Below are positions 8,452-12,595 of a stretch of 12,595 bases of DNA, piece after piece. Position 1 is the stretch's first letter, and every line of letters begins with the position of its first letter. This DNA is from a virus. A program made the position numbers and the translations under genes. The stretch lies in UHGV virus genome UHGV-1677753. One strand, given 5' to 3'. A model generated the notes under the pieces. That model made no database searches, had not been told where the DNA came from, and saw only the letters and a program-made list of their open reading frames with translations.

Positions 8452-8622
8452 ATGTTTGTCAAACCTGTTAAAGGGCGGTCAGTTCCTGACCCTGCCCGCG
8501 GCGACCTTTTGCCCGCCGAAGGGCGAAATGTTGACGAGAACAACTACTGGCTGCGCCGTGAAGTAGCGGGTGATATCCGGCGCGTGAATAAAAAGGTGAA
8601 CACCGATGACGATAAGCTTTAA
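8452..8622 (+). CDS. Small 56-aa protein immediately upstream of, and overlapping, the tail sheath gene (hypothetical)
   Basis: ATG 8452 is preceded by GAGGA (8442-8446, 5-nt spacing). Translates MFVKPVKGRSVPDPARGDLLPAEGRNVDENNYWLRREVAGDIRRVNKKVNTDDDKL and ends at TAA 8620-8622, overlapping the sheath start by 17 nt. Absent from the ORF track because it is under 60 aa. From memory, small conserved proteins occupy this position in Mu-like tail modules. Confidence 0.5.
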   Translation: MFVKPVKGRSVPDPARGDLLPAEGRNVDENNYWLRREVAGDIRRVNKKVNTDDDKL

Positions 8623-10102
8623 CACCATTCCGTCGAATACGCTGGTTCCGCTGTTTTATGCGGAAATGGATAATCAGGCGGCGAATACTGCACAGGACAG
8701 CGGAGCATCGCTGCTGATTGGTCATGCCAATAACGGTGCAGAGATTGTTGCCAACAGTCTGGTACTGATGCCGTCGGCAGACTATGCACGCCAGATTTGT
8801 GGTGCGGGAAGTCAGCTGGCGCGTATGGTTGAGGCTTATCGCCAGACCGACCCGTTTGGCGAGCTGTATGTGATTGCCGTTCCTGAATCCACAGGCGCGG
8901 CGGCAACGGTTACGCTGACGGTGACCGGGGCGGCAACCGAAACCGGCACGGTGAATGTCTATGTGGGACGTACCCGCGTGCAGGCTCCGGTGACCAACGG
9001 CGATAACGTCACGACGATTGCCAGCAGTATCAAAGATGCCATCAATGCCGTTCCGGCCCTGCCGTTTACGGCTTCATCTTCGGCAGGCGTGGTCACACTG
9101 ACCGCGCGTCATAAGGGGCTTTGCGGGAATGAAATTCCTGTCAGCCTCAATTACTACGGCTTTGGTGGGGGCGAAGTGCTGCCAGCGGGCGTACAGATTG
9201 CCGTGGCGACGGGTACCGCCGGAACGGGTGCTCCGGTTCTCACCGGCGCGGTGGCTGCAATGGCGGATGAGCCGTTTGATTATATCGGTCTGCCGTTCAA
9301 CGACACGGCCTCCGTTAACACGCTGGTGACCGAGATGAACGATACCAGCGGTCGCTGGAGCTATGCGCGTCAGCTGTATGGTCATGTGTATACGGCAAAG
9401 ATCGGCACGCTGTCAGAACTGGTGACCGCAGGTGACCAGTTTAACCAGCAGCACATTACCCTGGCGGGGTACGAAAAAGAGACCCAGACGCCTGCCGACG
9501 AACTGGCGGCAAGCCGTACCGCCCGCGCAGCGGTGTTTATTCGCAACGATCCGGCACGTCCCACGCAGACCGGTGAGCTGGTGGGTATGCTGCCTGCGCC
9601 GAAGGGGAAACGGTTCACGATGACCGAACAACAGACCCTGCTGTCTCATGGCGTGGCAACGGCGTATGTCGAAAGCGGGGTACTGCGCATTCAGCGTGAT
9701 GTCACCACGTACAGGAAAAACGCTTACGGGATTGCGGATAACAGCTACCTAGACAGTGAGACTCTGCATACCAGCTCGTATGTACTGCGCAAACTGAAAT
9801 CCGTCATTACCAGTAAGTACGGGCGTCACAAGCTTGCCAGTGACGGTACCCGCTTTGGTCCCGGTCAGGCGATTGTCACCCCGGCGGTGATCAAAGGGGA
9901 ACTGCTGGCAACCTACCGTCAGCTTGAGCGTGCGGGGATCGTGGAAAACTACGAACTGTTTAAGCAGTACCTGGTTGTGGAGCGTGATGCCAGCGATCCG
10001 AACCGCCTGAACACGCTGTTCCCGCCTGACTATGTTAACCAGTTGCGTGTCTTTGCCGTGGTTAACCAGTTCCGTCTTCAGTATTCAGAGGAGTCTGCAT
10101 AA
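8606..10102 (+). CDS. Contractile tail sheath protein
   Basis: 498-aa ORF directly followed by a 118-aa tube gene, a frameshifted chaperone and a tape measure gene. AAGGTG precedes ATG 8606. Size and synteny fit a sheath protein. Confidence 0.85.
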   Translation: MTISFNTIPSNTLVPLFYAEMDNQAANTAQDSGASLLIGHANNGAEIVANSLVLMPSADYARQICGAGSQLARMVEAYRQTDPFGELYVIAVPESTGAAATVTLTVTGAATETGTVNVYVGRTRVQAPVTNGDNVTTIASSIKDAINAVPALPFTASSSAGVVTLTARHKGLCGNEIPVSLNYYGFGGGEVLPAGVQIAVATGTAGTGAPVLTGAVAAMADEPFDYIGLPFNDTASVNTLVTEMNDTSGRWSYARQLYGHVYTAKIGTLSELVTAGDQFNQQHITLAGYEKETQTPADELAASRTARAAVFIRNDPARPTQTGELVGMLPAPKGKRFTMTEQQTLLSHGVATAYVESGVLRIQRDVTTYRKNAYGIADNSYLDSETLHTSSYVLRKLKSVITSKYGRHKLASDGTRFGPGQAIVTPAVIKGELLATYRQLERAGIVENYELFKQYLVVERDASDPNRLNTLFPPDYVNQLRVFAVVNQFRLQYSEESA

Positions 10103-10458
10103 TGGCCCGTATCGGGGGAACCTGTTATTTCAAAATTGACGGTCAGCAGCTATCGCTGACCGGCGGCATTGAGGTGCCCATGAACAGGACGGTCAATGAT
10201 GACATCATCGGCCTGGACGGTTCAGTGGACCGCAAGGAAACTCACCGTGCGCCTTATGTCAAAGGGACCTTCAAGGTGCCGAAGAATTTTCCGGTGAGCA
10301 AAATCACCTCGTCTGATGAGATGACTATCACTGCCGAGCTGGCGAACGGTCAGGTCTATGTATTGTCGTCCGCCTGGCTGCACGGAGAAGCGAACCATAA
10401 TGCCGAAGAAGGCACGGTTGATCTTGAGTTCCACGGTGAAGAAGGGGATTACCAGTAA
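10102..10458 (+). CDS. Tail tube protein
   Basis: 118-aa ORF. Its start overlaps the sheath stop (TAATG) with GAGGAG 7 nt upstream. Position between sheath and chaperone. Confidence 0.8.
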   Translation: MARIGGTCYFKIDGQQLSLTGGIEVPMNRTVNDDIIGLDGSVDRKETHRAPYVKGTFKVPKNFPVSKITSSDEMTITAELANGQVYVLSSAWLHGEANHNAEEGTVDLEFHGEEGDYQ

Positions 10459-10727
10459 TGAAAGAGCTTGAGTTAAAGAAACCGATTATCGCTCATGGTG
10501 AGACACTCTCCGTACTGGAGTTTGATGAACCCACCGGGAAGGATGTCCGCGAGCTGGGGTATCCCTACCAGATGAATCAGGATGAGTCCGTCAGACTTCT
10601 GGCGCATGTGGTGTCGAAATACATTGTGCGGCTGGCGAAAGTGCCGCAAAGCTCTGTCGACCAGATGTCTCCGGCAGACCTGAATGCAGCGGCGTGGCTT
10701 GTGGCTGGTTTTTTCCTCCAGGCCTGA
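10458..10727 (+). CDS. Tail assembly chaperone, short (G-like) form
   Basis: 89-aa ORF starting at the TAATG overlap with the tube gene. It lies immediately upstream of the tape measure gene and ends 12 nt after a TTTTTTC slippery heptamer. Confidence 0.8.
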   Translation: MKELELKKPIIAHGETLSVLEFDEPTGKDVRELGYPYQMNQDESVRLLAHVVSKYIVRLAKVPQSSVDQMSPADLNAAAWLVAGFFLQA

Positions 10728-10876
10728 CGGCTGAATACCTCACTGATCGCTTCTTTGACTGCGCCAGCTACTGGCGCATTAATCCCTTCGAATTGCTGAA
10801 TATGCCGATCAGTGAAATTCCCTTGCTGGTCAGTCAGGCAAACAGGATAGAGCAGGAGAAACGCACACATGGCTGA
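10458..10876 (+). CDS. Tail assembly chaperone, long (GT-like) form produced by -1 programmed ribosomal frameshift at 10709-10715
   Basis: The -1 frame is open from the slip site to TGA 10874-10876 (ORF track 10694..10876: ...FFPPGLTAEYLTDRFFDCASYWRINPFELLNMPISEIPLLVSQANRIEQEKRTHG). The slippery sequence T_TTT_TTC is in the correct zero-frame phase (codons TTT 10710-10712, TTC 10713-10715). The extended product ends overlapping the tape measure start. Confidence 0.65.
10709..10715 (+). other. Slippery heptamer T_TTT_TTC (X_XXY_YYZ) for -1 programmed frameshifting
   Basis: Read directly at 10709-10715, in phase with the chaperone zero frame and 4 codons before its stop. Confidence 0.65.
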
Positions 10877-12536
10877 ATTTGAGCTTAAGGCGTTGATCAC
10901 CGGTGTCGACAGGCTTTCTCCCGCGCTGTCGAAAATGCAAAAGAAAATCCGGGGATTTAAACGCCAGGCGGAAGAAGCGTCACAGGGTGGGCTGGCGCTT
11001 GGTGGCGGACTGGCAGCGGGTCTGACGCTTTCCCTGAAATCTTATGCCGATCAGGAAAACGCCGCCACCGGGCTGAAAGTTGCCATGATGGATGCGAACG
11101 GTGAGGTCGGAAAGAGCTTTCAGGACATCAATAAACTGGCTATTGGTCTGGGTAACCAGCTACCCGGTACAACGGCTGATTTTCAGAACATGATGCAGAT
11201 GCTGGTGCGTCAGGGGATCCCGGCAGAAAACATTCTTGGCGGTGTGGGTAAAGCGACAGCTTATCTTGCGGTACAACTGAAAAAAACACCGGAAGCGGCT
11301 GCCGAGTTTGCCGCAAAGATGCAGGATGCTACCGGAACGGCGTCAGAAGACATGATGGGGCTGTTCGACACTATCCAGAAGGCGTTTTATCTGGGCGTTG
11401 ACGATACCAACATGTTGTCCTTCTTCACTAAAACCAGTTCTGTTCTGAAGATGGTGAACAAGGACGGTCTTCAGGCTGCACAGAGCCTTGCCCCCATCAG
11501 CGTCATGATGGATCAGATGGGGATGAACGGGGAGTCGGCAGGTAATGCCCTGCGAAAAGTTATCCAGTCCGGATTAAGCGTTAAGAAAATCAGGGACGTT
11601 AATAAAGTTATGGCCCGCCAGAAACTCGGGGTACAGCTCGATTTTACTGACGGCAAAGGGAGTTTTGGCGGTCTTGATAACATGTTTAAGCAACTGGCAA
11701 AGCTGCGAAAATTGACCGACGTTAAGCGAACCGGTGTACTTAAGGCAATATTTGGTGATGATGCCGAAACCCTTCAGGTGGTCAATGCTCTGATCGATAA
11801 AGGAAAGGATGGTTACGATCAGATCCAGCAGAAGATGAATAAACAGGCCAGCCTGAATAAACGTGTTCAGGCACAGCTTGGTACGCTGTCCAACCTGTGG
11901 GAGGCAATGACGGGGACCGCAACTAACGGTCTTGCAGCTATTGGCGGCGCATTTTCTGGTGACGCTAAAAATATCACGCAATGGCTGGGGGAGTTGGGGG
12001 AAAAATTCACGAAGTTTGCGGATGAAAATCCCCGGGTTATTCGCGGCGTCGTCGGGCTTGCTGCCGGTCTTGCGATTCTGAAACTGGGATTGATGGGCGT
12101 GGGCGGTGCCATCAGCATTGTCAGCAGGATCATGTCGATGACGCCGATTGGCATGATTGCGACGGCGATAGCCCTGGCTGCGGGATTAATTATCACTAAC
12201 TGGGATGTTGTCGGACCTTATTTCAAGAAGCTCTGGGAAACCATTGGTCCTTATTTTGAGGCTGGCTGGGAACTCCTTAAGAAAGTTTTTGCCTGGTCGC
12301 CGCTGGGGATGGTGATCAATAACTGGGGGCCGGTTGTTAAGTGGTTTCAGGATATGTGGGACAAGCTGAAGCCAATTATTGAGTGGTTTACCGACAGTTC
12401 CGGTGACACGGTCGATGCCATTAACTCTGCGCAGTGGGGCGCGGGTGCTTATGATGCTTATGGGACGGGAATACCGGCACGGGGATACACTCCTTATCCG
12501 GCGGTGGATCCGGCTCAGTACCGCATAATACGATAA
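10869..12536 (+). CDS. Tail tape measure protein
   Basis: 555-aa ORF immediately after the G/GT chaperone pair. Ala/Gly-rich and largely helical in character, with hydrophobic segments near the C-terminus and periodic Trp/Phe repeats (WDVVGPYFKKL / WETIGPYFEAG). Its start overlaps the GT stop. Confidence 0.85.
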   Translation: MAEFELKALITGVDRLSPALSKMQKKIRGFKRQAEEASQGGLALGGGLAAGLTLSLKSYADQENAATGLKVAMMDANGEVGKSFQDINKLAIGLGNQLPGTTADFQNMMQMLVRQGIPAENILGGVGKATAYLAVQLKKTPEAAAEFAAKMQDATGTASEDMMGLFDTIQKAFYLGVDDTNMLSFFTKTSSVLKMVNKDGLQAAQSLAPISVMMDQMGMNGESAGNALRKVIQSGLSVKKIRDVNKVMARQKLGVQLDFTDGKGSFGGLDNMFKQLAKLRKLTDVKRTGVLKAIFGDDAETLQVVNALIDKGKDGYDQIQQKMNKQASLNKRVQAQLGTLSNLWEAMTGTATNGLAAIGGAFSGDAKNITQWLGELGEKFTKFADENPRVIRGVVGLAAGLAILKLGLMGVGGAISIVSRIMSMTPIGMIATAIALAAGLIITNWDVVGPYFKKLWETIGPYFEAGWELLKKVFAWSPLGMVINNWGPVVKWFQDMWDKLKPIIEWFTDSSGDTVDAINSAQWGAGAYDAYGTGIPARGYTPYPAVDPAQYRIIR

Positions 12537-12595
12537 TTATTACGTGCGAAATAGTCTTCACGTTCACGATAGTAAGAAGTATTGTATTTGCGAAT

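Follow-up and report, generated by a model that had tools for sequence, protein, structure and literature searches.

We found that, in an SfV-like temperate myovirus, the gene for the tail assembly chaperone very probably carries a site for programmed -1 ribosomal frameshifting like that of P2 E/E+E′, which is the myovirus counterpart of lambda G/GT, and that the SfV-like family as a whole in all likelihood uses this slip site. The window, by which we mean the whole 12,595-nucleotide stretch of viral DNA analyzed here, carries the late operon of such a phage, with head genes of the HK97 type. Judged by nucleotide identity, the host element is an SfV/SfII-like prophage: over 10102-11100, from the tube into the tape measure gene, it shares 98.3-99.6% identity with the Escherichia phages vB_EcoM-689R6 and SKA5 and the Shigella phages SfII, SfI and SfV, and at least 80% of the segment 10400-10950 is present in about 895 of 5,426 complete E. 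coli genomes. The genes follow the order sheath, tube, PF10109 chaperone and PF10145 tape measure, with the following features:

8606-10102: tail sheath gene (PF04984, PF17482, PF17481)
10102..10458, plus strand: tail tube gene, 118 aa (PF10618 Tail_tube, E=2.4e-33)
10458..10727, plus strand: zero-frame tail assembly chaperone ORF ('G', P2 gpE-like), 89 aa (PF10109)
10709..10715, plus strand: slippery heptamer T_TTT_TTC, in phase with the codons ggT TTT TTC
10715..10876, plus strand: predicted -1 frame extension ('T', P2 E′-like), 53 codons and TGA
10760..10778, plus strand: hairpin of 8 bp with a 3-nt loop, UGCGCCAG-CUA-CUGGCGCA, dG -12.9 kcal/mol
10854..10858, plus strand: AGGAG, likely Shine-Dalgarno sequence of the tape measure gene, read from the sequence
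10869..12536, plus strand: tape measure gene, 555-aa ORF (PF10145, E=9e-27)

The chaperone gene (10458-10727) sits between the PF10618 tube and the PF10145 tape measure genes. Its ATG at 10458 is overlapped by the stop of the tail tube gene, the counterpart of which is labelled tail tube protein in the SfV and E. coli records, and it ends with the TGA at 10725-10727. The 89-aa product scores 56.7 bits against PF10109 (Phage_TAC_7; Pfam name 'tail assembly chaperone proteins E, or 41 or 14'), for which the Pfam gathering cut-off is 25, and the chaperones of all 15 aligned relatives match the same family; by these profile matches, the zero-frame protein is a member of PF10109. The AGGAG likely to serve the tape measure gene lies 10 nt upstream of its ATG.

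The codons at the end of the chaperone gene are GCT GGT (10707-09) TTT (10710-12) TTC (10713-15) CTC CAG GCC TGA, which sets the heptamer at 10709-10715 in the X_XXY_YYZ phase, with TTC as the fourth codon before the stop and three sense codons in between. This codon reading agrees with the earlier note, which had placed T_TTT_TTC in phase with the 89-aa ORF and four codons before its stop. After a -1 slip, decoding would restart at CCT (10715-10717) and proceed through the sense codons PPGLTAEYLTDRFF...EKRTHG to the TGA at 10874-10876, where the earlier note had claimed a frame open for ~54 codons and overlapping the tape measure start; we count 53 sense codons and the stop, and the TGA overlaps the tape measure ATG (10869-10871) by 8 nt within ATGGCTGA. 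The predicted GT fusion, 10458-10715 joined to 10715-10876, has 139 aa, and its computed junction (...VAGFF-PPGLTAEY...) is the same as the junction peptide given in that note. The +1 frame is crowded with stops.

In the mechanism that we propose, most ribosomes would read 10458-10727 and release the 89-aa chaperone, and a minority would slip with tRNA-Phe on UUU in the P site and on UUC in the A site. Both tRNA-Phe would then re-pair one base back on U_UUU_UU, and translation would resume at CCU (10715) for 53 more codons to give the 139-aa fusion. If lambda and P2 are a guide, the N-terminal part shared by the two products would coat the tape measure protein, the C-terminal part made only by frameshifting would recruit the tube protein, and tail assembly would need a fixed low ratio of the two. 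For those phages, the literature gives a fixed ratio of the two forms and a need for both in tail assembly (PMC5009743; P2 record notes); there, the tape measure protein is bound by the short form and by the part common to both forms, and the tube protein is recruited by the extension (PMC5009743). That the shift is ribosomal, how efficient it is and what its two products do are here what we infer for the SfV-like family.

The combination of a heptamer and a long -1 ORF exceeds the chance expectation. Only three in-phase X_XXW_WWN heptamers occur in the 14 main ORFs of the window, the other two being followed by -1 extensions of just 7 and 13 codons, and a -1 ORF of at least 53 codons is available at only 2.1% of the in-frame positions in the other genes of the window (median 10). 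Hence, the arrangement at the chaperone end is not a chance one.

A one-genome-per-species scan yielded 20 loci with 38-100% chaperone identity, to which an SfIV-type variant (phage SfIV and E. coli AVS0787) was added for a total of 22. The scan took in Shigella, Edwardsiella, Buttiauxella, Citrobacter, Atlantibacter, Scandinavium, Kluyvera, Erwinia, Pantoea, Kosakonia and Enterobacter, as well as unclassified proteobacterial MAGs and the betaproteobacterium Derxia. In every one of the 22 loci, the homologous Gly/Arg-Phe-Phe is encoded with T_TTT_TTC or T_TTT_TTT in phase, (G/C)GT TTT TT(C/T) is invariant in place, and a -1 ORF of 50-59 codons follows that ends on or beside the tape measure ATG. 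Conservation of the heptamer and of the -1 frame in relatives, which the earlier note had named as a check, thus extends to all 22 loci and down to 38% identity. The zero-frame tail past the slip site is unconserved and varies from 3 to 21 codons among the relatives. The T run is retained in 19/19 distinct relatives, P2 included, and in the Derxia locus, with a G+C content of 68%, the slip site is the sole T6 run in 3.2 kb.

A first scan of IMG/VR had returned 80 loci with 100% identical chaperones, which are uninformative on covariation and were used as a population check. TTTTTTC is retained in 80/80 of these near-identical loci, and the extension ORF has 53 codons in 75/80. In the remaining five (among L006-L085), 10874 T>G abolishes the stop of the T frame and leaves the tape measure protein unchanged; read from the window sequence, the extension would then continue for about 8 codons. 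The loss of this stop in 5/80 loci indicates that the exact ATGGCTGA overlap is not strictly required.

Conservation at the slip site reaches down to nucleotides that the protein does not constrain. In an ungapped codon alignment of 14 sequences, G84 is GGT, F85 is TTT, F86 is TTC and P87 is CCT in 14/14 each, whereas elsewhere in the alignment the Gly, Phe and Pro columns vary over 2-4 codons; among the relatives, the codons flanking the site take all the synonymous options (GCT/GCG/GCA/GCC, GTG/GTT/GTA/GTC, and so on). The pairwise ratio of observed to expected synonymous differences is 0.04 over the six codons of GFFPPG versus about 1 elsewhere, which is the deepest dip of the whole G+T region. 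These comparisons across distant relatives show purifying selection on the nucleotides of the heptamer.

This pattern bears directly on the reading that the heptamer just encodes Gly-Phe-Phe, that the open -1 frame is fortuitous or a relic and that the 142-nt stretch ahead of the tape measure gene is an untranslated spacer. The RefSeq records of SfV, SfII and SfIV and the PGAP annotations of E. coli do present the locus in this form, with nothing but the 89-aa (or 107-aa) protein and, after it, an intergenic gap, and the tape measure gene of the window copy looks truncated. However, conservation of Gly-Phe-Phe leaves the invariant GGT, TTT and TTC unexplained at their degenerate sites, the -1 ORF is open in 22/22 relatives with a substitution pattern of the coding type, and it is collinear with P2 E+E′ (hhalign, probability 64%). 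We therefore regard coincidence or decay as having next to no probability, and for the SfV-like family these comparisons have effectively already refuted it.

The tape measure protein of the window copy is 99% identical to that of SfV over 550 aa, diverges at 12519 and stops 5 codons later, giving 555 aa versus 611 aa in SfV. The last 77 nt (12519-12595), which are AT-rich, have no match in the 5,426 complete E. coli genomes or in IMG/VR, and position 12519 could be a deletion or insertion junction. The window copy may thus belong to a defective or truncated prophage, with its signal intact but idle; if so, the nature of the slip site would be unchanged, though it would possibly be idle in this copy.

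The extension shows protein-level evolution in its -1 frame. Its relatives keep the motif F-D/N-C/V/I-A-x-Y/F-W-x-I/L-x-P ... A-x-R-I, and 45% of the differences fall on the third position of the -1-frame codons versus 31% and 25% on the other two, a distribution across the aligned sequences that shows purifying selection in this frame. The extension matches PHROG 32181 ('unknown function'), and NCBIfam searches with the extension and the fusion returned nothing; PDB sequence matches of either to LHCI proteins are spurious. With HMMER, the extension finds only 10 matches in 1.84 billion representative proteins, which are mostly stray ORF calls of 53-70 aa together with three longer proteins with repeated matches (216-998 aa), one of which was inspected and is a tandem repeat. 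Candidates for natural single-ORF fusions (P0001-P0006, from Logan and ENA) have several frame errors near homopolymer runs (e.g., ...AGFSSSLTAEY...), which mark them as assembly artefacts, and they were excluded from the evidence; among 5.8 billion proteins there is no clean chaperone-extension fusion, only such error-ridden assemblies.

A protein evolving in the -1 frame could also be the product of an independent small gene. In the window, a GTG at 10694 opens a -1 ORF (10694-10876), the same region is a separate 60-aa CDS in ON470584 (vB_EcoM-689R6), and PHROG 32181 and a handful of database proteins of 53-70 aa match such gene calls. The GTG is, however, not conserved, arises only from the base that precedes a conserved TGG and has no Shine-Dalgarno-like sequence ahead of it. 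In 11/18 SfV-family relatives, the -1 frame offers no ATG, GTG or TTG from the preceding stop up to the conserved residues, so that in these the extension is reachable only via the chaperone frame. The mere 10 clusters that match among the 1.84 billion representatives fit an ORF that gene finders normally miss. We accordingly consider an independent start at GTG 10694 highly improbable, and entry into the extension by a -1 shift from the chaperone gene remains the preferred reading.

The closest homolog of the system is that of P2. The P2 record features gpE of 91 aa and gpE+E′ of 142 aa, with an annotated -1 translational frameshift, as against 89 and 139 aa here, and its extension has 57 codons versus 53. 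The P2 shift has reportedly been demonstrated experimentally. In both systems, the slip occurs on a T6 run at a homologous ...V-x-G-F position (GGT TTT TTG at ...KVVGF-L in P2, GGT TTT TTC at ...LVAGF-F here), the overlap between the stop of the extension (E′ in P2) and the start of the tape measure gene (T in P2) is 8 nt, the zero-frame product belongs to PF10109, and the genes of a myovirus tail run in the order sheath, tube, chaperone and tape measure. The differences lie in the last letter of the heptamer, which is G in P2 (Leu UUG in the A site) and C or T here (Phe UUC), and in the extension: P2-type fusions combine PF10109 with PF06528 (Phage_P2_GpE), whereas PF06528 has no match at E<=10 in the window extension or at E<=1 in the extensions of 15 relatives. 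Further, unlike P2, the SfV-like family has a Mu-like sheath and tube and HK97-like head genes, and its shift, unlike that of P2, is unannotated and predicted from sequence.

Pairwise identity to the P2 fusion is about 20-30% and not significant by BLASTP. Profile-profile comparison of 15 SfV-family and 11 P2-type fusions with hhalign recovers 116 collinear columns with GF matched to GF (E=6.6e-5, probability 64%), which suggests that the extension is probably homologous to P2 E′ as a divergent counterpart. The earlier note had assigned the site to G/GT-type recoding; the class is upheld by the 22/22 conservation and the PF10109 membership, but the closest homolog is P2 E/E+E′ and not lambda G/GT. 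In lambda gpG/gpGT, with the heptamer G_GGA_AAG, the two forms likewise have a common N-terminal part and are encoded between the genes for the tube and the tape measure; a low-level -1 shift shortly before the short ORF ends produces the long one. The lambda virion contains neither form, and G-T frameshifting is described as widely conserved among long-tailed dsDNA phages (PMC5009743).

Mu offers a further comparison. Annotations label the SfV-type sheath, tube and gp38-like genes Mu-like, and in Mu too the chaperone precedes the tape measure gene. However, no X_XXY_YYZ heptamer lies in phase in Mu gp41 (144 aa), unlike in the window chaperone, and the ORF that bridges from gp41 to the tape measure gene gp42 (L106 2053-2640) is in the +1/-2 frame. 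This agrees with the -2 frameshift that Xu et al. 2004 proposed for gp41, as cited in PMC2628397. Judged by its heptamer and frame, the Mu-like tail module here uses a P2-style -1 site and not the -2 solution proposed for Mu.

In the SfIV-type loci (L003 2854-3270 of phage SfIV and L005 2556-2972 of E. coli AVS0787), the sheath and tube are about 97% identical to those of the window, while the chaperone (107 aa), the extension and the tape measure have been exchanged jointly and are less than 50% identical. The incoming module still has an in-phase T_TTT_TTT, a -1 ORF of 52 codons and the ATGGCTGA overlap. This joint replacement fits a co-adapted chaperone, extension and tape measure, for which it is circumstantial support.

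With regard to the mechanism of the shift, tandem slippage of E. coli ribosomes on X_XXY_YYZ would be shared with dnaX and IS3/IS911. In an E. coli reporter, H_HHU_UUY ranked among the best -1 motifs; U_UUU_UUC, which is also among the heptamers of IS elements, gave 0.12% frameshifting on its own, 0.89% next to the IS911 stimulator and 7.6% next to the IS3 pseudoknot, and the P2-type U_UUU_UUG gave 0.12%, 0.25% and 0.77% under the same three conditions (PMC4066793). Since the bare motif yields only about 0.1% in the reporter, a useful efficiency would depend on context. The dnaX and IS3/IS911 sites carry an upstream Shine-Dalgarno-like element and/or a hairpin or pseudoknot 5-9 nt downstream, whereas none is conserved here: we found no Shine-Dalgarno-like element 6-17 nt upstream of the heptamer and no conserved structure 5-9 nt (or within 10 nt) downstream of it. 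Near the site there is only a weak, unconserved 4-bp stem, the local stems in the folds of individual relatives differ with none in common, minimum free energy folding of the 85 nt downstream gives z=-1.9, and the alifold consensus has only a distant hairpin with no covariation. No Rfam family was matched, and no promoter or terminator was found. The site thus does not qualify as a canonical stimulated -1 signal of the dnaX or IS3 type. In this it resembles P2, which has no downstream stimulatory structure (PMC3091744); certain tailed phages apparently involve no stimulator, and the P2-type efficiency is 2- to 3-fold above that of lambda (PMC5009743).

The same protein could come about by transcriptional slippage, with RNA polymerase adding an extra U on the T6 run: the resulting U7 mRNA reads GGU UUU UUU CCU... 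and encodes the identical ...GFFPPG... fusion of 139 aa, so that a junction peptide would show the product and not whether its origin is ribosomal or transcriptional. The site is homopolymeric (T6 here, T7 in the SfIV-type loci and in L100/L101), and the failure to find a canonical ribosomal stimulator would fit such an origin. U7 and A7 runs are also under-represented in all three frames of E. coli genes, a scarcity that the authors of that survey attribute possibly to transcriptional slippage or to a high rate of indel mutation (PMC4066793). Against this, productive slippage of bacterial RNA polymerase is usually reported at runs of about 8-9 or more A or T. Most relatives hold C at position 7 of the heptamer, which limits the run to 6, the homologous P2 T_TTT_TTG is annotated as a translational frameshift and U_UUU_UUC is an experimentally competent ribosomal motif (PMC4066793). 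Slippage by RNA polymerase is therefore distinctly unlikely in our judgment, and we favor the ribosomal shift.

Tail chaperones made by frameshifting have been in the textbooks since lambda G/GT and the survey of Xu, Hendrix and Duda. The comparisons above support the slip site as an unannotated member of the P2 E/E+E′ (lambda G/GT-like) class, and the class itself being already known, the SfV-family site alters no concept. The shift is annotated in none of the RefSeq, GenBank and PGAP records of the SfV-like family that we examined. The SfI and SfIV genome papers contain no wording on a frameshift, slippage or a chaperone, and 'translational frameshift' is absent from the SfII announcement; SfV may be listed in the older literature. 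A 2014 E. coli-wide screen had two tail chaperone clusters among its prophage clusters, with the heptamers A_AAA_AAG and G_GGA_AAG, and no T_TTT_TTC prophage cluster. ON470584 lists the -1 extension as a 'hypothetical protein' of 60 aa (L002 2093-2275), and both this CDS and PHROG 32181 look like by-products of the unmodelled frameshift. The main value is hence one of annotation, in a prophage family that is common in E. coli and includes the Shigella serotype-converting phages SfV, SfI, SfII and SfIV: the predicted 139-aa fusion would fill the annotated gap and give PHROG 32181 a function.

Within the T extension, 44 nt 3′ of the heptamer, lies the GC-rich hairpin at 10760-10778. At this distance it is too far from the heptamer for a canonical stimulator, and we know of no bacterial -1 stimulator that acts at a spacing of 44 nt. 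If it is under selection as an RNA element and belongs to the recoding unit, it could stall a leading ribosome and so keep the follower longer on the heptamer, a stimulation at an unusual distance; it could shield the mostly untranslated 142-nt stretch from Rho or RNases; or it could tune translation of the tape measure gene. We consider such a role unlikely. The hairpin is intact in 13/15 relatives, with no compensatory changes, and is absent from the SfIV-type loci, L100, L105 and P2; the lack of compensatory changes and its absence from several clades weaken the case for selection. Its ratio of observed to expected synonymous differences (0.35) is the second-deepest dip, and its sole polymorphism in the 80 near-identical loci falls on the first base of the loop (10768). 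Stems that are invariant at synonymous sites and a loop that varies fit selection on structure.
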